A DNA stretch of 64,000 bases, taken from assembly GCA_046116545.1 (NCBI GenBank), contig CP175956.1:449734-513733 (forward strand), written 5' to 3'. This document shows positions 34,615-59,880 of the stretch, piece by piece. The notes beneath the pieces are model-generated. The model was not told where the DNA came from. It saw only the letters and a program-made list of their open reading frames with translations, and did no database searches. The DNA is from Candidatus Moraniibacteriota bacterium (GTDB lineage Bacteria > Patescibacteriota > Minisyncoccia > Moranbacterales > GCA-2747515). Both the position numbers and the translations under genes were made by a program. Each line of letters starts with the position of its first letter. Positions within the stretch are counted from its first letter, which is position 1.

Positions 34615-35322
34615 TTATTGTCTGATATGAACTTCTTGTATATTTGCATCTTGGAAAATCTGAATATATTTTTGCATTTTTTCACTTGAAATTGGTTTTT
34701 GATTTTCAAATTCTGGATCAAGTGTTGTCTCGGGACGAAATTTTTGTAAATATAATTTATCCGCACCACTTACCAACTCACTCATTTCTTTTATGATTTC
34801 TTCAGTATGTACACCCTCTATTACTGTTGTGCGAAATTCATATGGAACTGTTCCCTGTTTTAAAAATTCTATACTTTCTTTTATATTGTCAGGATTAACC
34901 ATTTTTCCAACCAAATTTTCATAATTATTTAAAGTTGTTTTCACATCCATTGCTATATAATCAATTAATCCATCGTTAACTAAGTCTTTCATTATATTTG
35001 GCAAATTTCCATTTGTATCTAATTTTACCAAAAATCCCATTTCTCGTACTTTTTGGATGAATTGTCGCAAATCTGGTTGTACAGTTGGCTCTCCACCCGA
35101 AATTACCACGCCATCTAATTTACCTCGTCTGCTTTCTAAAAAATTCAAAACTGCTCTTTCGGGGATAAAACTAGGGCGTAATTTTTTAATTTCTTCTGGT
35201 AAAACAAATTCTTTATTGTGACAAAAACCGCACCGCATATTACACCCTGGAGTAAATATGATTGCTGCTACTTTTTCTGGATAATCCAGCATGGTAAATT
35301 TCTGTACACCACTTATAAGCAT
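34615..35322 (-). CDS. nrdG: Anaerobic ribonucleoside-triphosphate reductase activating protein (radical SAM)
   Basis: CNMRCGFCHN (CxxxCxxC) near the N-terminus; sits adjacent to nrdD. Confidence 0.8.
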   Translation of the reverse strand: MLISGVQKFTMLDYPEKVAAIIFTPGCNMRCGFCHNKEFVLPEEIKKLRPSFIPERAVLNFLESRRGKLDGVVISGGEPTVQPDLRQFIQKVREMGFLVKLDTNGNLPNIMKDLVNDGLIDYIAMDVKTTLNNYENLVGKMVNPDNIKESIEFLKQGTVPYEFRTTVIEGVHTEEIIKEMSELVSGADKLYLQKFRPETTLDPEFENQKPISSEKMQKYIQIFQDANIQEVHIRQ

Positions 35323-35404: not shown

Positions 35405-35593
35405 TTAGTTACCAAATTTTTCTGTAAAATCATCATTTGCACAAGCACACTCTTGAAAATGTTTACGAGAATAATGTTCTGATTTTTTACCAGTATTAAA
35501 AAATGATACTGGGCGAAAATACCCCATTACCCTTGTCCATACTTCGCAACGTGTTCGCTCTCCTTCCTTCATTTGGATCTTTTGTGATACCAT
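35405..35593 (-). CDS. nrdD: NrdD C-terminal glycyl-radical segment encoded as a separate in-frame ORF
   Basis: CEVWTRVMGYFRPVSFFNTGKKSEHYSR matches the class III RNR glycyl-radical motif (RVxGY ... FNxGK). It is in the same frame as 35636..37753, separated by 14 codons containing two TAA. Confidence 0.6.
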   Translation of the reverse strand: MVSQKIQMKEGERTRCEVWTRVMGYFRPVSFFNTGKKSEHYSRKHFQECACANDDFTEKFGN

Positions 35594-35635
35594 ATGTTTA
35601 TTTTTACTTAATTAATTATTTTTTATTAATAAATC

Positions 35636-37753
35636 TTATTTATCTGCCTCTGTGCTTTGATATCTTCCCCTAAACTCTGCATCACAATAACTTTTATTTT
35701 TTATTCCTATTTCTTCATCACATTTCGGACAAAAATCATATTCTCCTTTCAAATATCCATGTTTTGGGCATATTGAGAATGTTGGTGTAATTGTAATGTA
35801 TGGAAGCTTATAATTTGTCAAAATCTTTTTCACAAGATTTGCACAGGCCTCTCCAGAACTCACTCTTTCATTCATGTACCCATGTAATACTGTTCCTCCA
35901 GTATACATTGTTTGCAATTCAGATTGTAAATCTAGTGCTTCAAAGATGTCATCTGTATATCCTACTGGTAGCTGAGTTGAGTTTGTATAATACGGAGCTT
36001 CTTCTGTCCCTGCCTGTATAATTCCCTCGTATTGCTTTTTATCTTCTTTTGCAAATCTATATGTTGTTCCTTCTCCAGGAGTTGCTTCTAAATTATACAT
36101 ATTTCCAGTTTCTTCTTGAAATTCTGACATTTTTTCTCGGATAAACTCCATTGTTTCTTTTGCAAACTCTAACCCATATTCAGAAGCTATATTTTCTTTA
36201 TCATCTGTAAAGTTACGTATTGATTCATTTACTCCATTTATCCCAATTGTTGAAAAATGACTATCTAATTTGCCTAGGTATCGCTTTGTATATGGAAATA
36301 GTCCTCTATCCATCCATTTAGTAATAACAATTCTTTTCATTTCTAATGATGCTTTTGCTAGTTCCATTAAATGAGTAATTCTTGCAAAATAGGCTTCTTT
36401 ATCGCCAGCACAAGTTTTTCCAATTCTTGCCATATTTAATGTTACAACACCAATTGAGCCAGTCATCTCTGCAGAGCCAAATAATCCCCCACCTCGCTTA
36501 CGCAACTCCTTTAAATCAAGTTGTAACCTGCAACACATTGAACGAACATCACTAGGATCAAGATCTGAATTTATAAAGTTTTGAAAATATGGAGTTCCAT
36601 ATTTTGCAGTCATTTCAAATAATGGCAATACTTTTGAATCCTTCCAATCAAAGTCTTTTGTTATGTTATACGTTGGAATCGGAAATGTAAATGTACGCCC
36701 TTTTGAATCACCCAGCATCATTACCTCAATAAATGCTTTGTTTACGATATCCATTTCTGCTTGGAGTTCTCCAAATTTATGTGCAAATGGCTCACCTCCG
36801 AGAATTAGTGTTTTTTCTCTTAAATCATCTGGACAAACCCAATCAAGCGTAATATTTGTAAAAGGAGTCTGTGTTCCCCACCTTGATGGAATATTTAAGT
36901 TAAATACAAATGATTGGATATTTTGATATACATATTTATACAAAGTTTCTGAAACATAGCTTTCTTCATCTTTTTTTGTAGCAAAGTTCATGTTATATTT
37001 TTCGATTGCCTCTCGTATTTCATTTTCCTTTTTTTTCACAAATGGAGCTAAATATGTATCAAAACTAGAAAATGCCTGTGCTCCAGCCCACTCATTTTGT
37101 AATGTTCCCAGAAAATTAACCATTTGAGATACGGCACTTGTTAGATGTTTTGGTGGATTTGATTCTACTTTATTAGAAACTCCATTAAAACCCTCTTCTA
37201 GCAACGCTCGTAAGCTCCACCCAGCACAATAACCACTAAACATATCTAGATCATGTATATGTAAGTCAGCATTTCTGTGTGCTTCACCTATAGCCTTTGG
37301 ATAAATATGAGATAACCAATAATTTGCTGTAACCTTCCCTGCTGTATTTAGAATCATTCCACCCAGTGAATATCCTTGATTTGAATTTGCATTTACACGC
37401 CAATCTAATTGATCTAAATATTCACCAATAGTCTTATCAACATCCACCATTACATTTTTATCTTCTCGTGCCTCTGTCCGCTTCTGCCTATATAATATGT
37501 AGTCTTTTGCTACTTGTGGATAATTACTGTGTATTAAGGAGTCTTCTACAGCATCTTGTACTTCCTCCACTGAAGGAATTTCATCAGAATACTCCTCAGA
37601 AAGCTTTGTTTCAGCATATTTTGCTATTTTTTTTGCTTCCACTTTTTTTGTGGGATTTGAAGCTATAGCCGCTTTTTCTATAGCATTTTCTATTTTTTCA
37701 ATATCAAAATCAACAATTGTTCCATTTCTTTTTTTTATCTTATGAATTGCCAT
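35636..37753 (-). CDS. nrdD: Anaerobic ribonucleoside-triphosphate reductase (class III), lacking the glycyl-radical tail
   Basis: N-terminal ATP-cone (MAIHKIKKRNGTIVDFDIEKIENAI) and C-terminal zinc ribbon CPKH...CPKC in 705 aa. Confidence 0.88.
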   Translation of the reverse strand: MAIHKIKKRNGTIVDFDIEKIENAIEKAAIASNPTKKVEAKKIAKYAETKLSEEYSDEIPSVEEVQDAVEDSLIHSNYPQVAKDYILYRQKRTEAREDKNVMVDVDKTIGEYLDQLDWRVNANSNQGYSLGGMILNTAGKVTANYWLSHIYPKAIGEAHRNADLHIHDLDMFSGYCAGWSLRALLEEGFNGVSNKVESNPPKHLTSAVSQMVNFLGTLQNEWAGAQAFSSFDTYLAPFVKKKENEIREAIEKYNMNFATKKDEESYVSETLYKYVYQNIQSFVFNLNIPSRWGTQTPFTNITLDWVCPDDLREKTLILGGEPFAHKFGELQAEMDIVNKAFIEVMMLGDSKGRTFTFPIPTYNITKDFDWKDSKVLPLFEMTAKYGTPYFQNFINSDLDPSDVRSMCCRLQLDLKELRKRGGGLFGSAEMTGSIGVVTLNMARIGKTCAGDKEAYFARITHLMELAKASLEMKRIVITKWMDRGLFPYTKRYLGKLDSHFSTIGINGVNESIRNFTDDKENIASEYGLEFAKETMEFIREKMSEFQEETGNMYNLEATPGEGTTYRFAKEDKKQYEGIIQAGTEEAPYYTNSTQLPVGYTDDIFEALDLQSELQTMYTGGTVLHGYMNERVSSGEACANLVKKILTNYKLPYITITPTFSICPKHGYLKGEYDFCPKCDEEIGIKNKSYCDAEFRGRYQSTEADK

Positions 37754-38045: not shown

Positions 38046-38738
38046 TGTTCCACGTGGAACAGTCTTAACTATACCTCCTAAATAGCTCTATAATTATTTT
38101 TCTTTAACTTTGTTCCACATGGAACAAAGTCTCTTGCATTACATTAATTTGCCCATGACATTCAAAATTGTTCTACGTGGAACAATCTCCTAATTGATTT
38201 ATCTTACAAAGTAATACCAATCCATGTTCCATGTGGAACATTTTATTGTTTACACTGTATTTTCTGTTCAATTTTTATAAAATTTTGTTCTACGTGGAAC
38301 ACCTCAGTGCCATTCATGCGCTCTCATTTAAATATTTGCACTCTGTAATGTTCCACATGGAACATTATACGATTTTCTGAGTTACTGAGTAGCGTTTTTA
38401 CATAAATTGTTCCATGTGGAACAATTTACCAGTTTTCTCCTATAATATGATCATTAGTTTACTACTAGATGTTCCACATGAAACATCTTCTTATTTCTAT
38501 TATCGTAATAGTCAAACTTGGTATTTAATAGTTCTACGTGGAACAAGTACATTATCTTACTCTTTTTCCTTAATTTATATTCCAAACAACTATTTTAATT
38601 CTATAAAGACATCTTTTACATTAAATGTTCCATGTGGAACATTATTAATAGGGAAGTATGTTTAAAAGTTCCACGTAGAACATCTCCCTTATATTTTTTA
38701 AATGAGATTATATAACTTGTATAGTTCTACGTGGAACA
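38046..38738. repeat. Array of 12 parS-like 16-bp palindromes (TGTTCCACGTGGAACA) spaced about 60 bp apart
   Basis: Copies begin at 38046, 38111, 38169, 38225, 38286, 38349, 38408, 38470, 38530, 38626, 38667 and 38723. The core matches the ParB-binding parS consensus tGTTtCACGTGaAACa, and the spacers between copies are unique. Confidence 0.75.
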
Positions 38739-43889: not shown

Positions 43890-44873
43890 CTAAACTTTGT
43901 AGTTATCAACATATTTCAATAAGGCACTAAATCTATCTGGATAATTAGCTTCAAAATTATATTCTTCTCCATTTAATTTAAAAGCCAACTCCTTAGCATG
44001 TAGATAAAATGTGCTTGGATCATATTCTTTAAATTCACTCAAATCTATTTGTCTCTCATTTTTTGTATAATATCTTTCATCACCTACAAGAGGATGTCCT
44101 TTATGTAACATATGTACTCTTATTTGATGAGTTCTTCCTGTCTTAGGTTTTACTTCTACACATGCAACCTGTAATGCTTCTGATAAATTATATTCAGATA
44201 TTACATTGTATTCTGTTTGAGCTTCTTTTGAATCACCTTTATATCTACCAAAAGCTATTTTTTGCTTTGTGTATGAAGTTGCTCGTGCTATTGGAGCATC
44301 TATTAGTCCATTTAATTCATCAAAAAGACCAAAAACTATAGCATGATATGTCTTTTGAATCTCTCTTTTTTGAAAAAGTTCCTTTAATTGATCAAAAGTC
44401 TCTTGGTTTTTAGCTATAACCATAAGTCCTGTAGTATCTTTATCAAGTCTGTGTACTATACCAGGTCTTTCTTCATCATCACCTACACCAGAAATCTCTG
44501 GGAATATAGCTAAAAGTGCATTTACAAGGGTTTCTTCTCGCTCTCTATGGCTTGGATGTACTTGTAATCCTCTTTGTTTGTTTATTATTGCAAAATTTTC
44601 ATTACTCTCCAAAATATCTAATACTATATTTTTATTTGGTACTATTTTATCATCTTGTTCTTCAAATTCACCCATTGTTATAATTTCATTACCTTTAAGT
44701 TTATAACTAGGTTTAACCTTTAAATCATTAACTAAGACGACTTCTGTCCGAATCATTTTTATTATTTCACCCCTTGTCCTATCCTCATTTTTTTTAGCTA
44801 AGAATTTATCTATCCGAATTCCTTTGTTTTTCTCTTCTACATTTATAATTTCATTCATAATATTATATTTCAC
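43890..44873 (-). CDS. rluD: RluA-family 23S rRNA pseudouridine synthase (RluD-like)
   Basis: S4-like N-terminus; catalytic motif HRLDKDTTGLMVIAKN. Confidence 0.85.
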   Translation of the reverse strand: MKYNIMNEIINVEEKNKGIRIDKFLAKKNEDRTRGEIIKMIRTEVVLVNDLKVKPSYKLKGNEIITMGEFEEQDDKIVPNKNIVLDILESNENFAIINKQRGLQVHPSHREREETLVNALLAIFPEISGVGDDEERPGIVHRLDKDTTGLMVIAKNQETFDQLKELFQKREIQKTYHAIVFGLFDELNGLIDAPIARATSYTKQKIAFGRYKGDSKEAQTEYNVISEYNLSEALQVACVEVKPKTGRTHQIRVHMLHKGHPLVGDERYYTKNERQIDLSEFKEYDPSTFYLHAKELAFKLNGEEYNFEANYPDRFSALLKYVDNYKV

Positions 44874-45837
44874 TAATTACATCAAAACCTTTTACACTTC
44901 CTACAATAGCATACCCAAATACATTTTGTGCCACATTATTTCTTTTACACTTACAGGCGAGTTGCTCCAAAGTTGCTCCAGAACCCACAGCATCATCAAT
45001 TATAAGTATGTTGTCATATTCACCTTTATCATCCACGACCATTGTTTCTTTTGCATTCTTTATACGATCATCAATTTTTGAAAGTGTTTTTTGTGGCACT
45101 ACAATTTCACCATGTACTTTAACAATATTTATTACTGGTAAAGCAATATTTAATTCATCTTGTAAAATACGCATGAATTGTATTTTACGATCAATAGATG
45201 GTGGTGCAAATCCAATTGCTTGTATATTTTCTTTTTTTATTATAGACAATACATCATCTTTTATCATTTCTACAACCTTTTTTATCATTTTTCTATCTTG
45301 ACTTTGTTTTGAATACATTACTAGTTGTCCTATTTTTGTCTTACCAAAAATTTCCCATGCATAGAACTCACTATAAAATACATCGTTAATACATTTAGTG
45401 TTAAAAACTTTATGCATTTTCACTGTACCTTTGATTAAATTATTCTCTTTATATTGTTTATATTTATCATAAATATCACAATATTCAACAGCTTTTTTAC
45501 TTATATCAAAATCTCTTTTGTCACACCAGATTCTAAAACCATTTAAACCATCCGCTTTTTCTCCATTTGGCATGATATAAAGAAAGTTTTTTTCAATAAT
45601 ATCACGCTTTTGTTGATCTATCTCAATTTTTACATCAACAAACTCTTTTTTATTTTCACTTGGAAAATAATATACACGTGGTGGGGAACCTCGTTTTAGA
45701 ACACTCTTTTCTTCTATAAGTTTTTTAAGATGTCGTTGAACCATTGCTCGAGTTAATTGAAATTCATTAATTAATTCAATTACCGTTGCTTGTTCCTTTT
45801 CTTGAATATATTTCAATATCTTATCACGAGAAGACAT
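44863..45837 (-). CDS. Winged-helix HTH domain fused to a type I phosphoribosyltransferase domain (PurR-like architecture)
   Basis: N-terminal ILKYIQEKEQATVIELINEFQLTRAMVQRHLKKLIEEK; C-terminal PRPP-binding motif ILIIDDAVGSGATLEQL. Confidence 0.55.
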   Translation of the reverse strand: MSSRDKILKYIQEKEQATVIELINEFQLTRAMVQRHLKKLIEEKSVLKRGSPPRVYYFPSENKKEFVDVKIEIDQQKRDIIEKNFLYIMPNGEKADGLNGFRIWCDKRDFDISKKAVEYCDIYDKYKQYKENNLIKGTVKMHKVFNTKCINDVFYSEFYAWEIFGKTKIGQLVMYSKQSQDRKMIKKVVEMIKDDVLSIIKKENIQAIGFAPPSIDRKIQFMRILQDELNIALPVINIVKVHGEIVVPQKTLSKIDDRIKNAKETMVVDDKGEYDNILIIDDAVGSGATLEQLACKCKRNNVAQNVFGYAIVGSVKGFDVISEI

Positions 45838-46041
45838 AACTATTTTATAATTAATTTATAGTATATAGTATACAGTGTATTATATACTATGTCAATTAAC
45901 CATTTAACTCTTTTATTCACAAGGACATCTATAGTACATATAATAATACTATGGATGTATTTTTAGTTTCACCTCAGCACAAACCTTTATTTAAAAGAAA
46001 TTTCATATTACATTATATGGAATTCAAAAAAGTTTTTATAG

Positions 46042-47876: not shown

Positions 47877-49946
47877 TTGAAACCACTGCAAATAAATCTA
47901 TTTGCAGTGGTTTTTGTTTTTTTTGAATACATGGTATTATATTTATATCTAAAAAATATATTTAAAAATGTGAAAAAAAATAATAAAATAAATAAATATC
48001 TTATATATATAACATCATTTTGTTTTATATTTTCATTTTTATTCAGTCTTAATTTTGATAATTATAGTGAAAATCAGCAAAATATTTTCAATGATGTTTA
48101 TGCAGCTAAAGCAGCTCAGGGTGCAGCAGGAAATGCTTCAGGAGGTAATAATGTAGCAAGTCCAACTAGTTATGATGTGGATGATGACACATATTTAAAT
48201 TTACCGTCCATGGTTTTTGCAATCGTTCGTTTTTTTTCTTGGTTAATTACATTTTGTGCATCACTTATAGAATGGACATTACAGCCAGCTTTCATGACTG
48301 GGCTTATGGAAAATACTGCTGTTAAAACTGGGTGGACTACAGTTCGCGATTTTTTAAATATATTTTTTATATTTTTTCTACTATTTAGTGCATTTGCAAC
48401 TATTTTTCAAGTTTCAAAATATCATATCAAAAGTACATGGGTAATGATTGTTGTAATGGCATTGATGGTTAATTTTTCATGGCCTATAGGTAGGGTTATT
48501 ATAGATATTTCAAATGTTACAATGACCTATATTATGGGAGATACTAAATCAGGTGGATTATCATCGGCTCTGGGTAAAAATTCACATTTTGCAGCGTTAG
48601 TTGTAGGTCAAGAAGGTCCAGAGGTTAAATTCGACAGTGAGGTTGACTGGGTTCCAATTTTTATGGGTGTATTAACTAGTTTTTTATTTTTAGTAACTAT
48701 AGGAGCAATTGCTTTAATATTAGTAATTCGAGGTATAGTGTTAGCTGTTCTTATGGTTTTTGCGTCAGTTGGTTTTGTATTAGCTGCATTTCCATCAACT
48801 AGATCATATGCAAATAGTTGGTGGAGTAGTTTGGTGAAATATGCAATGATAGGTCCAATATTATTATTTATGTTAATATTATCAATTAACATGTTATCTG
48901 CTGCGGAAAGTAGTAATTTTGTGAGTAGTGCACCTGGTTCTACTGGTAAGACAGGTGATGCAATAAAAGAATTAATGAAATACACCATATCACTTATTGT
49001 TTTGTGGTCTGGAATAATAGCCGCTGGAAAACTAGGTGATGGAGCGTCTAGCATGGTAGTTGGAAAAGCTGGTGCAGCTGTACGTGGTATGGGTAATAAA
49101 TTGAAAAAAAGTGGTGTTAGTACTGGGAAATTTGTAGGTAGAACAGGTGCTAATACAGCCGATTCAATTAGCGGTGGACGAATTAGTAGTGGTATAGCAA
49201 AAGTTCATGGGGTTTCTGATGGATGGAAAAAACGATTTAATAATGCTGAAGAGGGTAGAAAAAAACGTTATAATGAAACCAAAGAAAATATGTCAGCTAG
49301 AACAGAAGCACTTGCACACGATAAGGGTGGTATAGATGGTTATGGTGCTAATAAAAATGCTATTACAGCTCATGAAAATAAAAAAGTGGCAGAAATGAAG
49401 AAAAAACATAAAGAAGATAATACTGATGCTGTTACATTAGCTAATGAATTAGATGGTGCTGATAAAGTTAAAACTAGAGCAATAATAGAATCATTATCAG
49501 GAATGAAAGAAGGTGTTGATGAAAATGTTATTAAAAAAATGGTTAAGAGTGGTGATAAAATTAAAGGAAATAAAGTTCTAGAAAAAGCAATAACTAAAAA
49601 AGCAGCTGAAACTGGTAATTCTCATGTTGTATATGATAATGAATTAAATACACAATATAAAATGAAAGCAAAATCTGCAGGGAAAGATATAAGTCAATTA
49701 AATAGCATGGAAAGAAAAACTGTTAAGAGTAATGTATCTAAAGACGTATATAGTGGGATGGATGGTAAAACATTTGCAAAGCAAAAAGAAACGATTAAAC
49801 GAATTGATGAGAATAATGCAGGATTTCTTGCAATTGGAGAAGATTTACAAGGAAAACTAGAGAGAGCATCATTTGCAAAAGAAATGCAAAATGTTGATAG
49901 TGAAACATATGAAAGATTGCAAAATATTAATGATACTCATTTATAA
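47877..49946 (+). CDS. VirB6/TrbL-like polytopic membrane protein with a long hydrophilic C-terminal tail
   Basis: At least 7 predicted TM helices in the first 400 aa, a Gly-rich loop, a roughly 290-aa charged C-terminus, and genomic context next to VirB3/VirB4-like genes. Confidence 0.4.
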   Translation: MKPLQINLFAVVFVFFEYMVLYLYLKNIFKNVKKNNKINKYLIYITSFCFIFSFLFSLNFDNYSENQQNIFNDVYAAKAAQGAAGNASGGNNVASPTSYDVDDDTYLNLPSMVFAIVRFFSWLITFCASLIEWTLQPAFMTGLMENTAVKTGWTTVRDFLNIFFIFFLLFSAFATIFQVSKYHIKSTWVMIVVMALMVNFSWPIGRVIIDISNVTMTYIMGDTKSGGLSSALGKNSHFAALVVGQEGPEVKFDSEVDWVPIFMGVLTSFLFLVTIGAIALILVIRGIVLAVLMVFASVGFVLAAFPSTRSYANSWWSSLVKYAMIGPILLFMLILSINMLSAAESSNFVSSAPGSTGKTGDAIKELMKYTISLIVLWSGIIAAGKLGDGASSMVVGKAGAAVRGMGNKLKKSGVSTGKFVGRTGANTADSISGGRISSGIAKVHGVSDGWKKRFNNAEEGRKKRYNETKENMSARTEALAHDKGGIDGYGANKNAITAHENKKVAEMKKKHKEDNTDAVTLANELDGADKVKTRAIIESLSGMKEGVDENVIKKMVKSGDKIKGNKVLEKAITKKAAETGNSHVVYDNELNTQYKMKAKSAGKDISQLNSMERKTVKSNVSKDVYSGMDGKTFAKQKETIKRIDENNAGFLAIGEDLQGKLERASFAKEMQNVDSETYERLQNINDTHL

Positions 49947-49954
49947 AATGAATA

Positions 49955-51511
49955 ATGCAAGATTATAAAGATCAAAAGAAATACTACCCCACATTAGTAT
50001 CAGATATACAAGGAGTGTCAGATAAAAATGGATTTGAAAGAATTCAAAAAATAAAAGCACTACCACAAAAAACACAAGATATTTTATTTTCAGATAAAAT
50101 TATTGATGTTATTTATGATATAGAAAGAAGATATTATTTATCAGATGAAAATACGGAGGGAATTTCGAGATCGATTAGACAATATTTTCTTAGAGAAATT
50201 ACACAGGAAGGATTTATTGAGAAATTAAGTATATCATGTAATATTTCAAATGCTGATGCTATAAAATTATTACATGTTATTAATAGTGTTAGTGTAAAAG
50301 TAGAACAAAAAGAAAAAAAACAAATTAAAAAAATAAATTTAGATAAAAATAAATTTAGTGTAATTTTAAAAAAATATCCTAAAATTTTAGAGCAAAAAAT
50401 AACAAATAATAAAATAACAAATCCAAAAACAGGAGAACAAGTACAACCAACATTGAAGAATTGGATTAGAATGTATGAAATAGAATTTGGTGCTAGTGGA
50501 CGAACCATGATGAATAGGGGGGACTTTATGTTTCAATCCAGTGTAACTAGAGGTTTAAATGATAATGAAAAACAAGTAGTATCACAGTTATTGAAAAGTA
50601 AGGATGAAAATAGTGAAGTATCTGTTGACATAGATAAAAGTGAAATTGTTTTTGAAAATATTGTATTGAAGAGTGATAGTGATATAAATAAAACATTAAG
50701 GCAGACACCCAAGTCTATACCAACACAACAGATAAATAAGTCTGTCATAATGAAACAAATACAAAATTCTGTTCCAATGCAACAAACACGTAAAGCTGTT
50801 TTTGCACAGAAAAACAATAAAAACACAGACTTAAATACTGATTTAAATCAAAAAAATATTAACAATGAGTTTACAAAAGTAAATAATACTAATTCAAAAC
50901 ATAATTTTGATAATATAAGGCAGCAAAATAGTGATATAGGACAGGTTGATGAATTGAAAAATAAACTTGCAAATAGTCAAAAACAGCTAGAAAAATTAGA
51001 GACTGAAATTATAGGTGGTGAAAATAATAGTCAGTATGAACAACAGATGAATAGACGACAAAAGAACTATCAAAAACCACCCCTTAATCCCCTCCTTAAA
51101 AAGGAGGGGAGGCAAGTTGCTTCACAAGAACTATCCTCGATGGAGCAAATTACTTCTCAAAAAATAGTACCGATGAGACAAACCAGTTTTCAGAAAGAGC
51201 CACAATCAGATATTGAAAAAGAAATATTGAAAAATAGGGCAGAAATGAATAATGAAGTAATTGTGAATGAATTTCAGAAAGTAGATGATGGTCATGTTGG
51301 GATTCAGTCAAATTTAATTACATCAAAAAAAGTACAAAATACTAAAAAGAAGAATAATATAAACTTAATAAAGACAAATAAAAAACAAAAACCTAATAAA
51401 TATATAAAACAAGATGCAATAAACAAAGTTGAAAAAGTTGAAAATAGTATAAATAATGTTAGTGGTAATATAACATTTAGCTCTAAACATAGGATGCCTG
51501 GTGAAAGTTAA
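49955..51511 (+). CDS. Hypothetical hydrophilic Q/N/K-rich protein
   Basis: 518 aa with no TM helix and coiled-coil-like segments. Confidence 0.4.
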   Translation: MQDYKDQKKYYPTLVSDIQGVSDKNGFERIQKIKALPQKTQDILFSDKIIDVIYDIERRYYLSDENTEGISRSIRQYFLREITQEGFIEKLSISCNISNADAIKLLHVINSVSVKVEQKEKKQIKKINLDKNKFSVILKKYPKILEQKITNNKITNPKTGEQVQPTLKNWIRMYEIEFGASGRTMMNRGDFMFQSSVTRGLNDNEKQVVSQLLKSKDENSEVSVDIDKSEIVFENIVLKSDSDINKTLRQTPKSIPTQQINKSVIMKQIQNSVPMQQTRKAVFAQKNNKNTDLNTDLNQKNINNEFTKVNNTNSKHNFDNIRQQNSDIGQVDELKNKLANSQKQLEKLETEIIGGENNSQYEQQMNRRQKNYQKPPLNPLLKKEGRQVASQELSSMEQITSQKIVPMRQTSFQKEPQSDIEKEILKNRAEMNNEVIVNEFQKVDDGHVGIQSNLITSKKVQNTKKKNNINLIKTNKKQKPNKYIKQDAINKVEKVENSINNVSGNITFSSKHRMPGES

Positions 51512-51784
51512 ACAAACATGCGGATAGAGTCATGAATCTTGTTCTATAAAAAATTTATCATCAAGAATTTTTTTGTAAGGAGAGTGTTATTAAGTTGTTC
51601 GTTTGAGAAGATTATTTCAGGAATTTAGACGTTTGTTAGTATAGTCTAGATTCCGGATAAATTTATTTGTACATTATTGCTAAATACTCTGATACAAATA
51701 ATATTTTCTGGAATGACAATTTGGCGTGATTATAATAAAATTCTGTAAATCATTTATTAGAACAAATCACATAACCTTTTTATT

Positions 51785-51808
51785 GTCATTCCCGCGTAGG
51801 CGGGAATC
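51785..51808. repeat. GC-rich palindromic element, family copy 4 (canonical form)
   Basis: gtcattcccgcgtaggcgggaatc, an 8-bp stem ATTCCCGC/GCGGGAAT with a 4-nt loop. Confidence 0.65.
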
Positions 51809-52012
51809 TAGGATAATACTAATAAGCTTTGTGATTATCGTTTATTAATCTGGTGTACACATCACTTTATAGAAAACTTCCTAGATCCCCACATTCACTG
51901 GGATGACAAACTGAATGATGAAAATATGTGAGGATAAACTTTTGTAATATTTTTTTGGAATAAAAAAGTGTAGTGTGATATAATAAATATATTGAAAAAA
52001 TAAAAATAAAGT

Positions 52013-52471
52013 ATGCAAATTGTACCACAGTATATTGACATTGAAGATAAGATAGCAGGTCCACTTACATGGAAACATATAGGATGGTTATTTGGTGGTG
52101 GTGCAATTCTATCATTTTTATTTGTTACATTGGATAGAATTACATTTATGATTATAGCAATTCCATTTGGATTGCTTGTAATAGCAATGGCATTTTATAG
52201 ACCACAAGGAGTTCCTCTTGTGGAATTTATGGGATATGGATTTTCATATATTTTTAAACCAAAAAGATATCTATGGTCAAGAGATTTTGAAGCAGGTAAT
52301 CAACAGAGTGATAAGATTGTTGAAAGTGTTGTAAATGTGAAGCAAAAGGAAAAAATGACTATGGATGAAATAACAGCAATATCACAAACATTAGATAGTG
52401 GTGGTGTCCAGAGGAATAAACAGATGCAAGAATTAATAAAGAAAAATATAAGTACTGCAAATAAAAAATAA
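52013..52471 (+). CDS. VirB3/PrgI-like small membrane protein
   Basis: 152 aa, two TM helices (IGWLFGGGAILSFLFVTL, FMIIAIPFGLLVIAMAF), located immediately upstream of the VirB4 gene. Confidence 0.4.
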   Translation: MQIVPQYIDIEDKIAGPLTWKHIGWLFGGGAILSFLFVTLDRITFMIIAIPFGLLVIAMAFYRPQGVPLVEFMGYGFSYIFKPKRYLWSRDFEAGNQQSDKIVESVVNVKQKEKMTMDEITAISQTLDSGGVQRNKQMQELIKKNISTANKK

Positions 52472-52475
52472 AAAT

Positions 52476-53168
52476 ATGAGTTTTTTTGGTTCTAATAGTG
52501 AAAATGTAAATAATTCAGGTATCAGTACATTGAAGTATGTTGATATTAAAACAATAAAAGATGGTGTTGTTGTATTGAAAAATGGAGGAATGAGAGCGGT
52601 TCTTTTAGTTTCATCAATCAATTTTGATTTGAAATCATCAGATGAGCAAGTTGCTATTATTGGAGCTTATCAAAACTTTTTAAATTCACTGGATTTCCCA
52701 GTGCAAATAATAATAAGTTCAAGAAAATTGAATATAGGTCCATATACGGAAATACTAAAAGAAAAAGCAAAAGAACAAAGTAATGAATTATTAAAAATTC
52801 AAATCATAGAATATAGAGAGTTTATATCAACACTTGCGGATGTTACTAATATTATGAATAAATTCTTTTATCTAGTTGTACCATTTGCTCCGGTTGAAGA
52901 TAAAAATAGTGGAGTTTTAGATAAAATAACAAATGCAATAAATCCATCTCAAAGCATTACTCAACACAATGAATTATTTGAGACTTATAAAAATCAGTTA
53001 TGGCAAAGAGTGGATCATGTAGCAGCAGCACTTGGTGGCACAGGACTGCATTTTACAACATTAAATACAGATGAATTAATAGAATTGTATTATAGTGCTT
53101 ATAATCCATCAGAATATGCTCAGGTTACAATTAAAGATATTTCTAAATCAGATATTAAACAATTATAG
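52476..53168 (+). CDS. VirB4/TrbE-family ATPase, N-terminal segment (ends at an in-frame TAG)
   Basis: KDGVVVLKNGGMRAVLLVSSINFDLKSSDEQVAIIGAYQNFLNSLDFPVQIII resembles the VirB4/TraE N-terminal domain and is in the same frame as 53172..54980. Confidence 0.6.
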   Translation: MSFFGSNSENVNNSGISTLKYVDIKTIKDGVVVLKNGGMRAVLLVSSINFDLKSSDEQVAIIGAYQNFLNSLDFPVQIIISSRKLNIGPYTEILKEKAKEQSNELLKIQIIEYREFISTLADVTNIMNKFFYLVVPFAPVEDKNSGVLDKITNAINPSQSITQHNELFETYKNQLWQRVDHVAAALGGTGLHFTTLNTDELIELYYSAYNPSEYAQVTIKDISKSDIKQL

Positions 53169-53171
53169 TAT

Positions 53172-54980
53172 ATGTTTTCAAAAAAACAAAAAGAAACAAA
53201 AAAGAATAATGTAATAGAAAATGAAGAGTTTTATCAAAGTGGTGTAGCGACTGTAAGAGGATTGATAGCTCCAAGTGCATTAGAAATAAAAACAGATCAT
53301 ATTCAAATTGGTAATGTAATGTCTTCGACTATGTTTGTTATTGCATATCCAAGATTTCTGAACGATAATTGGTTTTCTCCAATTATTAATATAGATTTTC
53401 CAATGGACACAGCAATGTTTATTCATCCAGCAGATACTAGAGAGGTGTTGAAAAATTTAAAAAAAAGTGCAGCTCATGTGCATTCGCAGATAAATATAAA
53501 TGCAAATAGTGGTAAAGTGATGGATCCAATGCTTGAAACTGCTGTGGATAATATTGAAAATTTAAGAGTTAGTTTACAACAAGGTACAGAAAGATTTTTT
53601 CAATTCGGACTGTATTTAACTGTTTTTGCCACTGAAGCAGCTGTATTACAAAAAAACAAAAGTGAAATACAAGCAATATTAGAGGCGCAGCTAATTTATA
53701 CAAAGCCAGCAGTATTACGTATGGAACAAGGATTTATGTCGACAATTCCACTAGGTGTTGATAAATTAAGTGCAGGTACAAATCTAAATACAGCACCACT
53801 TTCAACAACATTCCCCTTTGTCTCTTCAGATTTATCTTCGAATGAGGGTATTTTATATGGAATTAATAGACATAACAATAGCTTGATATTGTTTGATAGA
53901 TTTAATATGGAAAATGCAAATATGGTTGTATTTGCAAAATCTGGTGGTGGTAAAAGTTACTTTGTTAAGTTGGAGTTGTTACGTGCTATGATGCTGGGTG
54001 TAAATATAATAATAATTGATCCTGAGAATGAATATAAGCATTTATGCGGAACTGTAGGTGGAACTTATGTAAGAATATCACTTGGATCACAGGCTCATAT
54101 AAATCCATTTGAGTTACCAAAAATTCCAGAAGATGAAAAACCAGAAGATGTTTTTAGAAATACAATTGCTAGTCTGATAGGACTATTACATATAATGCTC
54201 GGTAGTGTGACACCAGAAGAAGATACTGTTCTAGAACGTGGTATAAGAGAATCATATGCGGTTAGAGATATAAATGAAAAAAGTAATTTTGGTGTCATAC
54301 CACATAAAGGATATCCTACAATGTCAGATTTATACGAGGTCTTGAGGAGTATGGATGGTGGTGATTCAATTGCTAAAAGGTTATCCAAATATACAGATGG
54401 TATATTTGGAGGATTTTTGAATAACCCAACAAATATTGAAGTTGATAATCAAATGGTTGTATTTAATATTCGGGATCTTGAAGAAGAATTGAGACCAATA
54501 GCAATGTATATGGTACTTCAATTTATTTGGAATGAGATGCGTACAAATCTTACAAGACGTATCGTTGCAGTAGATGAAGCCTGGGTTATGATGCAAAATG
54601 ATGATGCAGCTGCTTTTATGTTTGGTATAGCAAAAAGGTGTCGTAAATATTATACAGGACTTACGACAATTACTCAGGATGTTAGTGATTTTATGTCCAG
54701 TAGATATGGGAAGCCAATTGTAACAAACTCATCATTACAACTATTGTTAAGACAATCCCCAGCTTCTGTAGATGTAATTACTGAGACTTTTTTCTTAACA
54801 GATCATGAAAAATTTTTATTATTAGAAAGTGGTGTGGGTGAGGGTATCTTATTTGCAGGACCAAAGCATGCTGCAATTAAGGTTATAGCATCCTATAGTG
54901 AAGATCAGATTATAACGTCAGACCCAAGACAATTAGAAGAAATCGAAAAAGCAAAAGCAGAGCTAGAAAATGAAGAATAG
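53172..54980 (+). CDS. VirB4/TrbE-family conjugal-transfer ATPase, C-terminal segment (ATPase domain)
   Basis: Walker A VVFAKSGGGKSYF and Walker B RRIVAVDEAWVMM (the VirB4 hallmark DEAW). Confidence 0.8.
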   Translation: MFSKKQKETKKNNVIENEEFYQSGVATVRGLIAPSALEIKTDHIQIGNVMSSTMFVIAYPRFLNDNWFSPIINIDFPMDTAMFIHPADTREVLKNLKKSAAHVHSQININANSGKVMDPMLETAVDNIENLRVSLQQGTERFFQFGLYLTVFATEAAVLQKNKSEIQAILEAQLIYTKPAVLRMEQGFMSTIPLGVDKLSAGTNLNTAPLSTTFPFVSSDLSSNEGILYGINRHNNSLILFDRFNMENANMVVFAKSGGGKSYFVKLELLRAMMLGVNIIIIDPENEYKHLCGTVGGTYVRISLGSQAHINPFELPKIPEDEKPEDVFRNTIASLIGLLHIMLGSVTPEEDTVLERGIRESYAVRDINEKSNFGVIPHKGYPTMSDLYEVLRSMDGGDSIAKRLSKYTDGIFGGFLNNPTNIEVDNQMVVFNIRDLEEELRPIAMYMVLQFIWNEMRTNLTRRIVAVDEAWVMMQNDDAAAFMFGIAKRCRKYYTGLTTITQDVSDFMSSRYGKPIVTNSSLQLLLRQSPASVDVITETFFLTDHEKFLLLESGVGEGILFAGPKHAAIKVIASYSEDQIITSDPRQLEEIEKAKAELENEE

Positions 54981-54997
54981 ATATATAGTTATAAAAT

Positions 54998-55630
54998 ATG
55001 TCAGATGTGACTGTACAAAATAATATAAATCAACATGCACTCGAGCAACAACGTAATCGAGATTTTAAGGATGCTCGTATTGCTGAGCAGAAAAAACAAC
55101 AAAAACTTAAAAAGGAGCAGTATGCAGGAGGTCTTGCAAGTGCAGTAAAAGCATCACATGTTAATACACAAAAAACAACATCAAATAAAACAGATGCTCA
55201 AACAAAAAGAGAAATAAGACAACGACAAAGTTGGTATGCTAAAATAATTAAAGCACGAAAAAGAAAAAAATCAAAAAAAATACTGACCAGAAAATATGAA
55301 AAAATAATCAAAGGGTATAGTAGAATATCATGGATATTATTGTATACAGCCGCAGTAGCAGACGCTTTTTTTGATTTAATTACTGTACCAATACTGTCTA
55401 CTTTTATGTCTATATGTTTTTCACTTTATTTAAACTTAGCACTTTGGAGTGTTGGAGAAAAAAAAGATAGAGCAAAAAGAAGGCTTATCAGAGCATCTGT
55501 CTCAGTATTAGATTTAATACCAATTATAAATTTAATTCCTTTTTCAATTATGATAGTTTATAAAACACAAACAAGAGAACAAAAACGAGTTAAAAGAGCA
55601 AAAAAAATGATTGAAAAAATAAACAAATAA
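54998..55630 (+). CDS. Hypothetical basic protein with two C-terminal TM helices
   Basis: 210 aa, K/R/Q-rich N-terminus. Confidence 0.4.
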   Translation: MSDVTVQNNINQHALEQQRNRDFKDARIAEQKKQQKLKKEQYAGGLASAVKASHVNTQKTTSNKTDAQTKREIRQRQSWYAKIIKARKRKKSKKILTRKYEKIIKGYSRISWILLYTAAVADAFFDLITVPILSTFMSICFSLYLNLALWSVGEKKDRAKRRLIRASVSVLDLIPIINLIPFSIMIVYKTQTREQKRVKRAKKMIEKINK

Positions 55631-55678
55631 AAGTGTGGTATAATTTAAAATAAATAATGAAAATAAAATAAAATATTT

Positions 55679-56320
55679 ATGAATAATGAATTAAAGACAA
55701 ATATAATAACAACAGTGTTTGCAATAACATGTCTTATCTTGTATCTCGCATTTCCTTTTGGTGATTTGGAATTTGAAAATTGGCTTGGTATGTTATGTGT
55801 TTTATTTATTTTGCCTATTTTATATTCAAAAATTATTTTACATAAAACAAGTAGGGATATAGGATTTGGTAAAATTAACATGGATAAAAGAGGTTGGTTC
55901 TTTCTAGCTAGCTCTGTCATTGTTGGAGGATTGATTAGTTTTTTGATTATTAGTATGGAATTTGGCAGGAATGCATATATTGACAGTCTATCACCTACAA
56001 TAGCAACACATTTTGGAGCATTTATGTTTTATGAGCTTATTTTCATGGCATTATCGATGTTTCTGTTTACCTTTTTTTCCTTTGGCTTTATATATTCTAT
56101 AAAATACAAAAATGAAATATTCTCAAAAATATTCTCAATAGCAGTATTTATAGTATTTTTAGCAGATTTTTATATAAGTGCAATATTATGGATTCCATTA
56201 CTTGCTCCGGTGTTTTTTATTAAACAAATTAGGTATAATAAAAATATAATTTTTATGTTTTTAGCACTATTTATAATAGCTCTGATGATAGATACATTAG
56301 TGATTAAATCAATCTTGTAA
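55679..56320 (+). CDS. Hypothetical integral membrane protein
   Basis: 213 aa, about 6 TM helices. Confidence 0.4.
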   Translation: MNNELKTNIITTVFAITCLILYLAFPFGDLEFENWLGMLCVLFILPILYSKIILHKTSRDIGFGKINMDKRGWFFLASSVIVGGLISFLIISMEFGRNAYIDSLSPTIATHFGAFMFYELIFMALSMFLFTFFSFGFIYSIKYKNEIFSKIFSIAVFIVFLADFYISAILWIPLLAPVFFIKQIRYNKNIIFMFLALFIIALMIDTLVIKSIL

Positions 56321-56331
56321 ACAAAATAATC

Positions 56332-59300
56332 ATGCAAACAAAAAAAACAATAGCAATAACACTAATATTAATACAAATAATAATACTTCAACCAATAAGC
56401 ACATATGCTTTTTTAGGGTTACCAAGTAATCCATTGAGTGGCGGTGGAGGGAGCGGAATGTCAGGAGATATAAGAAGTGGTATAAACGATTTTTTAGAAA
56501 AAGATTTAAATATAAATGTAAAAGATGGTCTAAGACCACTGACAGAGAGTATAAATACAATAGATAGGAAAGGAGAAATGCCAGAAGTGTCATTAAGATT
56601 TTCATCACAAAGTCCAAAAGAAGGAGAGAAGATAACAGTAAGTGCAGATGTAACAGGTGTAAAGAATCCAAATGATGCATACTATGTATGGTATTTAAAA
56701 AGAAAAGGAGATAGCTATGATGATATAGATAAATTACATCGTCAAGCAGTAAGTGCACAAGCAGCATTGTACTATGATCCAGAAACTCTAAATCAAAAAT
56801 TCAATCAAGGGATAGTAGCTTCAAAAGGAGATGATTATGATGGATATAAACCAAAGATGGGAGGAGATAATGGGATACTAAGAGGAGCAACATCAAAATC
56901 AGGTTCAAGCTTACTGCAACAACACGAAACTGCTACTGGAAACATCAAGGACGCTCATCAAGGAATAATAGATAGTTTACCAGGATTTGGAATATTTGAT
57001 GTATTGGCTCCAGGAACATCTCAAATAATGGATGCACAAAATCAAGTTAGAGATAGTCTATTAAATTCAACAGGAACAAAAGCAAATGACACAAAATCAG
57101 CATCAGGTAATAGGGATTATTGTTATATTTATAATTCAAAAACAGGTAAGCAATATGAATTAGGTGATGCACATGATGATTCAGCAATGGGCTGTCCAAC
57201 TGGATATATAGCAAAATGCATGCAAGAGAATAATGATTTAATGTGCCCAGTAGCAGTTCCAGGAATGACAGGAACTTCAACAGCAAGTAGTTCAGGTGGT
57301 GGCAATACATCATCCTCTTCAACTTCAACAACAATAGCAGGAGGAAATGGAGATAGATTCAGTTATCTAACAAGATGTCTAGATACAGAAATAAAACCAA
57401 CTTGTGATGTAAACACAGGAAAACTTCATTGTTCACAAGCAGATAAAGGAAATGTATTTCAAGCAGATAAAGCTTATTCATGCGATGGAACAAGTTGTAG
57501 TTCATATAAGACAGATGGTCATTGTTGTGAAGTGTTTGATACAATAGAGAAATGTAAAGCAGATAAGGATACAAAAATATGTACAATGGGAAGTCAAATG
57601 ATGGCAGTGAGTTATAGTTATGATCAACCAATAACTACTCCAACTCCTTATTGTGTTAAACAAGATCAAAAAACTGGGGAAATTTGGAAGGATCCTAATG
57701 TTAATGGGTGTGGGCTATATTCAGCAGATGGCAAATACCCAGGACCAACAGAAGGCCGTGTCGCAGGAACTAATCCAAGCTTTGATTTTTTTCAGCCAGA
57801 TGGAACGCCGTATAATGCACCATTTACAGGAATTATTCTTTGTCCAGACTCTCCAAATCTATTAACTTGTGATAATAATTTTAAATATCATGGAATGGAT
57901 GGAGCAAAACCAGTTTTTGAGAGACCTTTAGGTCAGGGCGTGGGTGCGTCAATGACAATTACATGTCAGGATGATGTTGGGGTTACATGGACATATGATA
58001 TAAGTAATGATAATACTGTTCAGTTTGCGGGTTGCCCTGATGCAAAGCCAATTAGCAGAGGTTGTTTTATTGATAAGGATAAAAAGATTTTAGATTTATT
58101 GGAACCCGAAAAAGCCTGTACCCTATCAACACCAAAGGACTCAGGGTGTACCGAGAAACAACATCTGTTTCCAGAGGAATTAAATCTAGGATTCTTTCCA
58201 GCATCAATAGAGGCACAGTATGGAACAAATCCAATAGATGCACAAACAACACCATTAGCAATAAATGATGGAGCATTGGCAGTAGGACTAGGAGTAAAGA
58301 ACTTTGAATGGAAATATAAAGCAGGAGATGAGATAGCTGTAGTAGTAGAAGGGATGGGACTGGGAATGACAAAACATGAAGATGCAACATATCAAACAGT
58401 TTTTGCAGTACCAAAAGAGGGATGTCAAAAAGCAATAGAAAATGCTTCAAAAGAAAGTTATGAAGAAACAGCAAAGAAAAAAGTAGTAACAATAGAAGTA
58501 GCAGAGATGAATCCAAGAGATTGTGTAACAGCAGAGATATTCCAAAAACCAGGAACGTCACAGTTTGATGCATTAAATGTAAATGTAAACCATGCTTCTC
58601 CAAGTGCACAAAACACATCTGTAGCAAGTGGGCTGAGTCAACCAATGCAAATAACAGCACATGCAAATGGTGTAAAAGGAGGAGGAATATCAAATTCAGA
58701 ACATCTGTACTATGAATGGAGTATTGTGTGTGGAGGAAAAACAATAGATTTAAGTAAAATGGAAGGACTGTCAAAAACAGAAGGAATGAATCTACCATCT
58801 CTAAATCTAACAGCAAACTTTCCACAGGAATGTGTAGATGCAGGAGAAGTAATAGTAAAAACAAAAATAAATGAACCTAGAGCTGGAGGAGGATCAAATT
58901 TTGGACAATCAGAAACAAAAATCAAGATTTATGATGTAAAAGATAGCCCACTTAAAACATTCAAGACAGAAATAGTAGAAGACACAAAATTCCAAAAAAC
59001 AGCAACAGCAGTATGTGATGTTGGGATAGATAAAACTTTGTGTAGAGTGATGAATAATGAAGTAATAGCTATAGCAGCAACAAAAGATGATGGAACAATA
59101 TATGATGGAACAATGCTGTCTTGGACAGTAGATGGAAAAGCATATAATTGTGATTCAAGTATATCTCCAGATTGTAATGATAGAACAAACTCAGGAACAA
59201 TAATAATTCCAATGACAGGTAGTGATGGAGATTTAGTAACAGTAACTGCAAGTATAAATGATGTAACAGGTGATAAAAACAATACACAAGTTCTATCAAG

Positions 59301-59853
59301 AGTATTTAGAGTAACAGATTCACAAATATCAATAACTCCTGTTAGTGGGGCTGTTGTGAAGGAGTTGGGGAGCTACGAGGATTTAAATGGAAAGAAATTT
59401 ACAAAACAATCAACAACAACTCTACAAACAATAAAGGGAACAAGTATAACTTTAAAAGCAGTTCTATATCCAGAATTTTTAAATAAAGGTGATGAAAAAT
59501 ACACATGGACAATAGATGGAAAAGATTACGCAAATACAAATCCAATAACATTTGTTGCTGATAAGGATGTTAGTGTTGGGGTGAAGTCAGAACAAGCTTT
59601 GAAAAGAGAAGATAGAAAGGCATTGAGTGATGCTTTTGGAATAATACAATCTCAAACAACAAAAGAAACCCTCTCAAAGACAATCCAAATAGAATTATCA
59701 GATTCAGTAAAATTAACAAAGTTGCAAAATGGTTTTTTTGCAACAGTAGCACATAATACTCCACAATATTTATTATTCATTTTGAAAATGACACTTATGA
59801 TGGGAATAATGCTTTTCATTCCTTCTTTGATATTGGGGTTTAAGAGAACGTAA
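56332..59853 (+). CDS. Giant (1173-aa) Cys-rich protein with a signal peptide and a C-terminal membrane anchor, probably cell-surface
   Basis: Signal peptide MQTKKTIAITLILIQIIILQPISTYA, more than 40 cysteines, and a C-terminal TM helix LLFILKMTLMMGIMLFIPSLILGF. Confidence 0.6.
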   Translation: MQTKKTIAITLILIQIIILQPISTYAFLGLPSNPLSGGGGSGMSGDIRSGINDFLEKDLNINVKDGLRPLTESINTIDRKGEMPEVSLRFSSQSPKEGEKITVSADVTGVKNPNDAYYVWYLKRKGDSYDDIDKLHRQAVSAQAALYYDPETLNQKFNQGIVASKGDDYDGYKPKMGGDNGILRGATSKSGSSLLQQHETATGNIKDAHQGIIDSLPGFGIFDVLAPGTSQIMDAQNQVRDSLLNSTGTKANDTKSASGNRDYCYIYNSKTGKQYELGDAHDDSAMGCPTGYIAKCMQENNDLMCPVAVPGMTGTSTASSSGGGNTSSSSTSTTIAGGNGDRFSYLTRCLDTEIKPTCDVNTGKLHCSQADKGNVFQADKAYSCDGTSCSSYKTDGHCCEVFDTIEKCKADKDTKICTMGSQMMAVSYSYDQPITTPTPYCVKQDQKTGEIWKDPNVNGCGLYSADGKYPGPTEGRVAGTNPSFDFFQPDGTPYNAPFTGIILCPDSPNLLTCDNNFKYHGMDGAKPVFERPLGQGVGASMTITCQDDVGVTWTYDISNDNTVQFAGCPDAKPISRGCFIDKDKKILDLLEPEKACTLSTPKDSGCTEKQHLFPEELNLGFFPASIEAQYGTNPIDAQTTPLAINDGALAVGLGVKNFEWKYKAGDEIAVVVEGMGLGMTKHEDATYQTVFAVPKEGCQKAIENASKESYEETAKKKVVTIEVAEMNPRDCVTAEIFQKPGTSQFDALNVNVNHASPSAQNTSVASGLSQPMQITAHANGVKGGGISNSEHLYYEWSIVCGGKTIDLSKMEGLSKTEGMNLPSLNLTANFPQECVDAGEVIVKTKINEPRAGGGSNFGQSETKIKIYDVKDSPLKTFKTEIVEDTKFQKTATAVCDVGIDKTLCRVMNNEVIAIAATKDDGTIYDGTMLSWTVDGKAYNCDSSISPDCNDRTNSGTIIIPMTGSDGDLVTVTASINDVTGDKNNTQVLSRVFRVTDSQISITPVSGAVVKELGSYEDLNGKKFTKQSTTTLQTIKGTSITLKAVLYPEFLNKGDEKYTWTIDGKDYANTNPITFVADKDVSVGVKSEQALKREDRKALSDAFGIIQSQTTKETLSKTIQIELSDSVKLTKLQNGFFATVAHNTPQYLLFILKMTLMMGIMLFIPSLILGFKRT

Positions 59854-59880
59854 GTGTTTTATAAAATAAAACAAAAAAAT

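Follow-up and report, generated by a model that had tools for sequence, protein, structure and literature searches.

We analysed a 64,000-nucleotide (nt) stretch from the genome of a Candidatus Moraniibacteriota bacterium (contig CP175956.1, positions 449,734 to 513,733 of the forward strand; hereafter the window), with a focus on a locus for a class III (anaerobic) ribonucleotide reductase (RNR). Three open reading frames (ORFs) follow one another on the minus strand: an nrdD gene of 705 amino acids (aa), a 62-aa ORF and nrdG. The parts of the locus are as follows:

35636..37753, minus strand: nrdD large subunit, 705 aa (ORF listing and translation; Pfam and NCBIfam)
35720..35770, minus strand: zinc ribbon CPKH-x10-CPKC, residues 662-678 of the large subunit (alignment with P. 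copri NrdD)
35639..35719, minus strand: C-terminal tail of the large subunit, 27 residues, DEEIGIKNKSYCDAEFRGRYQSTEADK (homologue consensus)
35594..35635, minus strand: spacer, 42 nt, A/T-rich, holding a second in-frame TAA (translation and locus comparison)
35405..35593, minus strand: putative small glycyl-radical subunit, 62 aa (Pfam NRDD 530-562; NCBI XLQ20611.1)
35522..35524, minus strand: Gly24 codon, predicted glycyl-radical site in TRVMGYFRP (T. maritima alignment; invariant in the small-protein alignment A1)
34615..35322, minus strand: nrdG, 235 aa, radical S-adenosylmethionine (SAM) activase (NCBIfam TIGR02495 NrdG2, E = 6e-61)

The 705-aa ORF ends in ...CPKHGYLKGEYDFCPKCDEEIGIKNKSYCDAEFRGRYQSTEADK, followed by TAA. 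Fourteen codons (GAT TTA TTA ATA AAA AAT AAT TAA TTA AGT AAA AAT AAA CAT) separate it from the ATG of the 62-aa ORF, which lies in the same frame, contains RTRCEVWTRVMGYFRPVSFFNTGKK and has variable ends on either side of the conserved core RTRCEVWTRVMGYFRPVSFFNTGKKSEHYSRKHFQE. Translation thus reproduced the layout described in a sequence-only reading of this DNA, namely a 62-aa ORF with a glycyl-radical motif, in frame and 14 codons after NrdD. That reading had let NrdD end just after its zinc ribbon; in fact the chain runs 27 residues beyond it. In the NCBI annotation the small ORF is already a gene, under the accession given above, and 82 nt lie between it and nrdG, whose product would be the activase that installs the radical on the small subunit. 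The spacer contains AATAATTAATTAA, a motif also found in several related spacers. We detected neither a Shine-Dalgarno motif nor a terminator in the spacer, no Rfam family in or near it, no terminator between the genes, and no enrichment of NrdR-box-like patterns.

Domain searches placed an ATP-cone at residues 5-94 of the large ORF (Pfam), together with a class III catalytic barrel that contains the finger-loop motif SMCCRLQ, the two cysteines being residues 407-408. The ORF scored 578 bits against Pfam NRDD and 1074 bits against NCBIfam NF006126 (cut-off 548). The NRDD profile (PF13597, 562 positions) divides exactly between the two ORFs, with positions 2-529 matched by the large and 530-562 by the small one. 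Against T. maritima NrdD (4coi), the alignment of the large ORF extended to residue 609, and that of the small ORF covered residues 612-645. Since both alignments divide there, the chain is broken after the zinc ribbon (CPKH-x10-CPKC) and before the glycine loop. A pattern scan of the large ORF returned no RVxGY-like motif. The sole glycyl-radical motif in the window is that of the small ORF, the only other match of the pattern lying in an unrelated FtsH gene. RVxGY, expected on the barrel polypeptide of a class III RNR, is therefore missing from the large chain and present in the system as a whole. Gly24 of the small ORF aligns with the loop region of G621, a residue named for T. maritima NrdD (PMC4493059).

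The zinc ribbon, which aligns with its CxxC...CxxC counterpart in P. copri NrdD, is retained by the large subunit. Its C, H, C and C are invariant in alignment A3, and it is probably a Cys3His site; a Cys/His zinc site is documented in T. maritima NrdD (PMC4493059). The tail behind the ribbon measures 26-27 residues in 109 of 117 close homologues and follows a common consensus, kept in Patescibacteria as D-E-E-L-G-I..G.R.D.E.R-K-K-Y.S..A.K. In a homologue model it formed a short helix of moderate confidence. We also considered that the invariant Cys16 of the small protein might complete the zinc site in trans. This idea was dropped, as four ligand positions are available in the large subunit itself, and it is further weakened by relatives with a fused, single-chain gene, which often do not have that cysteine. 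In Pfam the small ORF matched only PF13597 NRDD, and in NCBIfam it matched NrdD models; Gly_radical PF01228 was not among the matches, and neither database holds a dedicated family for the small protein.

We found 1293 homologues of the small ORF, the best 120 of which were all stand-alone proteins of 55-88 aa, mostly from Patescibacteria. Alignment A1 comprised 23 invariant columns, with variable ends on both sides of the near-invariant core RTRCEVWTRVMGYxRPVSxFNxGKKSEHYSRKHFxE. Four diverse homologues each lay downstream of an nrdD of 703-706 aa and in three cases (L003, L005, L007) were followed by nrdG, a gene order that most scanned loci share with the window. When one genome per species was searched with the small-protein alignment, at least 599 matches were confirmed, and the best 80 loci were examined for split or fused genes and for their neighbours. 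A sequence-pattern test classified 74 of the 80 loci as split and none as fused. A protein search found the large subunit directly upstream in 75 loci; one further locus was cut by a contig end, and in the remaining four, all from Sutterellaceae, the small ORF stood alone.

These data also bear on a trivial explanation, that sequencing or assembly introduced false stops into a normal single-chain gene. The spacer is indeed low in complexity and A/T-rich, a type of sequence that is error-prone on some platforms. However, two other independent assemblies carry the identical 62-aa protein downstream of a truncated large ORF, and assembly L001 has the complete 705-aa ORF together with an identical 42-nt spacer. 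The source contig measures 1.29 Mb, and the architecture is common to hundreds of genomes, those of cultured strains included. We therefore give such an error practically no chance.

Among the cultured Proteobacteria with such loci are Stutzerimonas stutzeri, Pseudomonas fluvialis, P. jinjuensis, P. paraveronii, Thiohalocapsa marina, Marichromatium bheemlicum and Terasakiispira, while Thiobacillus figures in the scan with assembled genomes. Direct confirmation of the split came from the megaplasmid of Cupriavidus metallidurans CH34, and Ralstonia megaplasmids gave matches to the small ORF. The 48-aa small protein of P. jinjuensis recurs in identical form on more than 1000 P. aeruginosa contigs, where it is annotated as 'anaerobic ribonucleoside-triphosphate reductase' or 'oxidoreductase'. 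Overall, the separate radical protein ranges from 48 to 70 residues, and none of the phage records carries the small ORF. On the Thiothrix fructosivorans plasmid pTfr153 (L092, 1778-3498), the large nrdD lies in two overlapping frames with no coding sequence listed, and a 63-aa small ORF is annotated as the gene 'nrdD'.

Among the compared orthologous loci, spacers of 24, 34, 38, 42, 71, 201 and 230 nt occur, with frame offsets of 0, 1 and 2. Because orthologous small ORFs occupy all three frames after spacers of 24-230 nt, the shared frame in the window is a coincidence, and the description of the gene as an nrdD interrupted by in-frame stops is misleading. Read-through or bypass of both TAA codons would yield a single chain of about 780 residues, and would fit the two window ORFs being in frame and 14 codons apart as well as a naturally fused homologue, P0191, that resembles the tail, the translated spacer and the small ORF in one chain. 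However, with the small ORF in frames 0, +1 and +2 at orthologous loci, no read-through or recoding is needed. The spacers at those loci reach 230 nt, with many stops and in one case a mobile-element-like insertion, and proteobacterial versions have a Shine-Dalgarno site and ATG of their own. We found no tRNA with a TAA-reading anticodon in the window and no RNA motif in the spacer, and other genes of the window terminate normally. Recoding, which the sequence-only reading had left as an option, is accordingly very improbable, and a reassignment of the stop codon was rejected on the same evidence. That reading had also counted another housekeeping-grade gene with in-frame stops in the window; none was found among the scanned same-frame neighbouring ORFs, which are distinct genes.

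The insertion mentioned above lies in L003, a Magasanikbacteria genome, between nrdD and the small ORF. Compared with the near-identical L004 (2377-2414), the L003 spacer (4800-5000) holds 163 additional nt with terminal inverted repeats (GGAGTCTCTGATAA...TTATCAGAGACTCC), which are absent from L004. This insertion resembles a miniature mobile element.

Strong purifying selection acts on the small ORF. In comparisons with the small ORF of the window, synonymous differences were saturated (median pS about 1.0) at a nonsynonymous level (pN) of 0.16, and the closest relative gave a pS of 0.35 with a pN of 0. Differences at the three codon positions numbered 644, 496 and 2007, so third-position changes dominate. 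Over its last 230 residues the large subunit is less conserved than the core of the small protein, and pairwise distances of the two subunits were correlated (Mantel r = 0.64; none of 999 permutations as high). These results speak to the possibility that the locus is a pseudogene, that is, that a nonsense mutation truncated nrdD, the downstream ORF is a decaying remnant, and another RNR or salvage is used. The absence of the essential glycine from the large ORF would suit this view, as would the reduced genomes of Patescibacteria, 64 kb of the present one being visible to us. However, neither relaxed selection (pN/pS near 1) nor a variable stop position among close relatives was seen. The same break recurs in the at least 599 species genomes, which belong to several phyla; the start codons of the small ORF and the tail of the large subunit are themselves conserved, and nrdG is kept alongside. 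An inactivated nrdD, as had been proposed, is contradicted by this breadth and by the selection on the small ORF, and we consider a pseudogene extremely improbable.

Start signals were then compared between loci. In nearly all of them an ATG precedes the core by 8-25 codons. Of the 46 scanned loci from outside the Patescibacteria (Proteobacteria and others), 39 have a Shine-Dalgarno-like motif, typically AAGGAG at 5-9 nt before the ATG. Within the Patescibacteria, the small ORF has an A/T-rich leader that is free of this motif. In the window, such motifs precede only 5 of 51 long ORFs, the others having A/T-rich leaders, nrdD and nrdG included. Because 46 of the 51 long ORFs are without the motif, its absence at the small ORF is no argument against translation. 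Judged by these comparisons, the small ORF is a real, conserved and independently initiated gene, whose translation in this organism we infer. In P. aeruginosa, complementation with a complete nrdD-nrdG fragment restores class III function (PMC5645315). Such a fragment would include the small ORF, which indirectly supports the functionality of the pair.

To place the split among related enzymes, we compared it with homologues in which the C-terminus is fused. The search for these returned mostly fragments from contig edges and served only to show how far the linkers vary in length. Fused relatives hold 2-45 residues where the split chain breaks: in many, merely 2-3 residues lie between CPxC and (C/T)EVWTRVMGY, whereas others have linkers of 20-45 residues that resemble the split tail plus the N-terminus of the small protein. 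Of the representatives of 50%-identity clusters, 133 had a C-terminal region that could be used; 71 of these were without the loop and 62 were fused. In a rough neighbour-joining tree on 145 residues, the clade of the window protein comprised 36 split and 3 fused representatives, and parsimony assigned a fused state to the root. On this tree, the split is a derived form among fused relatives. The fused P0162 and P0191, the latter composed of tail, translated spacer and small protein, are nested among close relatives and look like secondary re-fusions. The likely history is that a linker was inserted first and that fission occurred within it later. The earlier suggestion of an in-frame A/T-rich insertion holds in part in this historical sense, as there is extra sequence at the break relative to the short-linker fused relatives.

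Since P0191 is naturally fused, it was chosen for structure prediction, using an alignment of large subunits and fused C-termini. The model adopted the class III fold and matched best the NrdD structures of S. thermophilus, P. copri, T. maritima and phage T4, with template modelling (TM) scores of about 0.65-0.7. Its linker was disordered (predicted local distance difference test, pLDDT, 40), while the loop region reached a pLDDT of 72-86 and formed a beta-hairpin followed by a helix. When the small protein of the window was modelled alone, confidence was low (mean pLDDT 56) and no hairpin appeared. The models are consistent with a small protein that folds on docking, which we take as soft evidence.

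The comparisons establish the gene structure, its conservation, the selection on the small ORF, its independent start signals and the derived position among fused relatives. The locus very probably encodes an intact class III RNR as two polypeptides plus activase in one operon, in the order nrdD-large, small glycyl-radical gene and nrdG. The large 705-aa subunit would contribute the ATP-cone, the catalytic barrel with its finger-loop cysteines and the predicted Cys3His zinc ribbon. The RVMGY loop, which in an ordinary NrdD chain makes up the last ~35 residues, would be borne by the 62-aa protein, whose translation would start at an ATG of its own. NrdG would remove a hydrogen from Gly24 of the small protein, and the glycine hairpin would dock in the barrel of the large subunit beside the finger-loop cysteines (SMCCRLQ). 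The radical would then be handed to the finger-loop cysteine, as in single-chain enzymes, and the zinc ribbon and the conserved 26-27-residue tail may help to hold the peptide or the activase.

Several points weigh against this reading. Complex formation and radical transfer between the chains are deduced solely from homology with single-chain enzymes, and the small protein is known from genes alone, in any organism. As 64 kb of the genome were examined, a second, full-length NrdD may exist elsewhere. The tree was calculated by neighbour-joining on 145 residues, and some of the 'split' representatives may be truncated sequences. In addition, the fused P0162 and P0191 each come from a single contig and may be assembly errors.

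If a full-length NrdD were encoded elsewhere, the small protein might be a true spare part that rescues this enzyme after cleavage by oxygen, as GrcA does for pyruvate formate-lyase (PFL). GrcA offers a precedent (PMC13450708), and in the four Sutterellaceae loci no nrdD or nrdG lies within 3.5 kb of the small ORF, so that it can be an autonomous gene. However, in 75 of the 80 loci the small ORF directly follows a large subunit without a glycine loop of its own, and the two subunits co-diverge. A spare part would also leave unexplained how a loop-less large subunit works. Because the large subunit is without any glycine loop, the small protein would be obligate rather than spare, and we judge the spare-part explanation improbable. 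The best reading of the sequences remains an obligate subunit of the large NrdD. The proposal of a separate polypeptide similar to GrcA/YfiD was thus right in that there is a separate, conserved gene; the likeness ends where GrcA serves as a spare for a full-length enzyme. As for the Sutterellaceae (L066, L068, L072, L078), the orphan small ORF lies at ~3500-3680 among unrelated genes, with neither nrdD nor nrdG on either side within the distance given. It may be a subunit unlinked to its partner gene, or else a genuine spare for an enzyme whose gene lies elsewhere.

Compared with single-chain NrdD and NrdG (phage T4, E. coli, T. maritima 4COI, P. copri 8P23), the split system has the same ATP-cone, barrel, finger-loop cysteines, zinc ribbon, RVxGY loop and adjacent activase. 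It differs in that a break separates the zinc ribbon from the glycine loop, the loop being a product of its own of 48-70 aa, and in that the large subunit has a free C-terminal tail of 10-45 residues. In all respects tested, the predicted system is a class III RNR; the one exception is the glycine, which is not on the catalytic chain.

GrcA/YfiD is likewise a small stand-alone glycyl-radical-loop protein that needs a cognate activase and docks in a large barrel protein. However, it coexists with full-length PFL and replaces the damaged domain, whereas the large subunit of split NrdD never has the loop. The enzyme that accompanies the small NrdD protein is not full-length, as the adjacent large subunit is without the domain in 75 of the 80 loci. 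Moreover, the small protein does not belong to the family of GrcA, as it matches NRDD and not PF01228. According to a review of June 2026, spare-part proteins are known only for formate lyases (PMC13450708).

A second comparison is offered by the split class II enzyme NrdJa/NrdJb of Pseudomonas aeruginosa. This RNR too is encoded by successive ORFs that are both required for function, and it occurs in the same group of organisms. In the split NrdD too, two consecutive ORFs jointly cover one ancestral RNR chain and are conserved across species. NrdJa/NrdJb belongs to the B12-dependent class, has another break point, and its NrdJb carries a zinc-finger/redox tail and not the radical site. Because NrdJ belongs to a different RNR class, the likeness is an analogy and not a homology of the split. 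Class I RNR, with its catalytic alpha and radical-bearing beta subunit, is similar in concept, a stable radical residing on a separate polypeptide that delivers it. Its radical subunit and chemistry are unrelated, however, with a ferritin-like metallo-cofactor/tyrosyl radical and long-range transfer instead of a glycyl loop in the barrel. Small polypeptides that bind a glycyl-radical barrel are also found in benzylsuccinate synthase (beta and gamma) and as the small subunit of 4-hydroxyphenylacetate decarboxylase. Those carry Fe-S clusters or regulate access, and the glycine is on the large catalytic chain.

We found no description of a split class III RNR in the literature searched, one key paper of 2014 on NrdD subtypes lying outside the search. 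The architecture is thus widespread and annotated in databases, and is described in no paper that we found. Descriptions of glycyl-radical enzymes place the radical glycine at the C-terminal end of the catalytic chain, and the only free domains known are PFL spares; a widespread split would change this picture. Split NrdD would offer a simple system to study how an activase recognizes the loop and how the loop enters the barrel, and it suggests a built-in repair strategy against oxygen damage. Cleavage by O2 at the radical site would then cost a peptide of ~7 kDa and not an 80-kDa enzyme, a benefit that is speculative and that we hold to be rather doubtful. For annotation, the large gene risks the label 'truncated', and the small gene is readily overlooked or labelled as the complete enzyme. 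Since P. aeruginosa and Cupriavidus have the same layout, the proposal can be tested in genetically tractable organisms, with a possible bearing on anaerobic growth of P. aeruginosa in infection.

In the widest sense, a large and hitherto undescribed branch of class III RNRs, from Patescibacteria to P. aeruginosa, Ralstonia and Cupriavidus, might consist of obligate heteromers that carry the radical on an exchangeable subunit of 48-70 residues. These would be the first glycyl-radical enzymes with a loop protein that is replaceable by design, allowing cheap repair of oxygen damage. The split would also have freed the catalytic C-terminus, which in some Proteobacteria could use cysteine pairs as a redox shuttle tail in the style of class I and II. 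We offer this generalization tentatively, with the balance tipping slightly the other way.

The large subunits showed further variation. Tails with C-terminal cysteine pairs were seen in 8 of 34 large subunits from outside the Patescibacteria (L043, L048, L051, L054, L056, L061, L074, L086; for example ...SRSCCGGCGG in P. jinjuensis) versus none of 33 within them. In this they recall the redox shuttle tails at the C-termini of class I and class II reductases. A third type of C-terminus (P0265, P0270, P0271, P0280, P0300 and similar sequences) ends in ...CPVHGYIPGEHxxCPY(P/E)HTEE.L.R(F/Y)G..., with no second CxxC knuckle and no glycine loop. Among the large-subunit representatives P0241-P0390, many relatives measure 800-1900 aa and match the query in 2-6 separate stretches, which suggests that several inteins are inserted in this NrdD family.

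Outside the nrdD-nrdG genes, we observed twelve copies of the 16-bp palindrome TGTTCCAYRTGGAACA at 38046-38738, mostly ~60 bp apart, against a chance expectation of 0.5. This array is intergenic, between the start of nrdD and a tRNA-Arg gene, and its half-site TGTTCCACA resembles a DnaA box. Candidate functions are an origin, an iteron array or an operator array. Cumulative GC skew is lowest, with a change of sign in the skew, at 44000-46000, about 6-8 kb from the palindromes; this may mark a replication origin or merely a switch in gene orientation. Finally, a type IV secretion-like cluster occupies 47877-60390, with a TrbL/VirB6-like protein, a TraG P-loop ATPase, a pilin of the type IV secretion system, and large ORFs without a Pfam match, one of them 1173 aa long.

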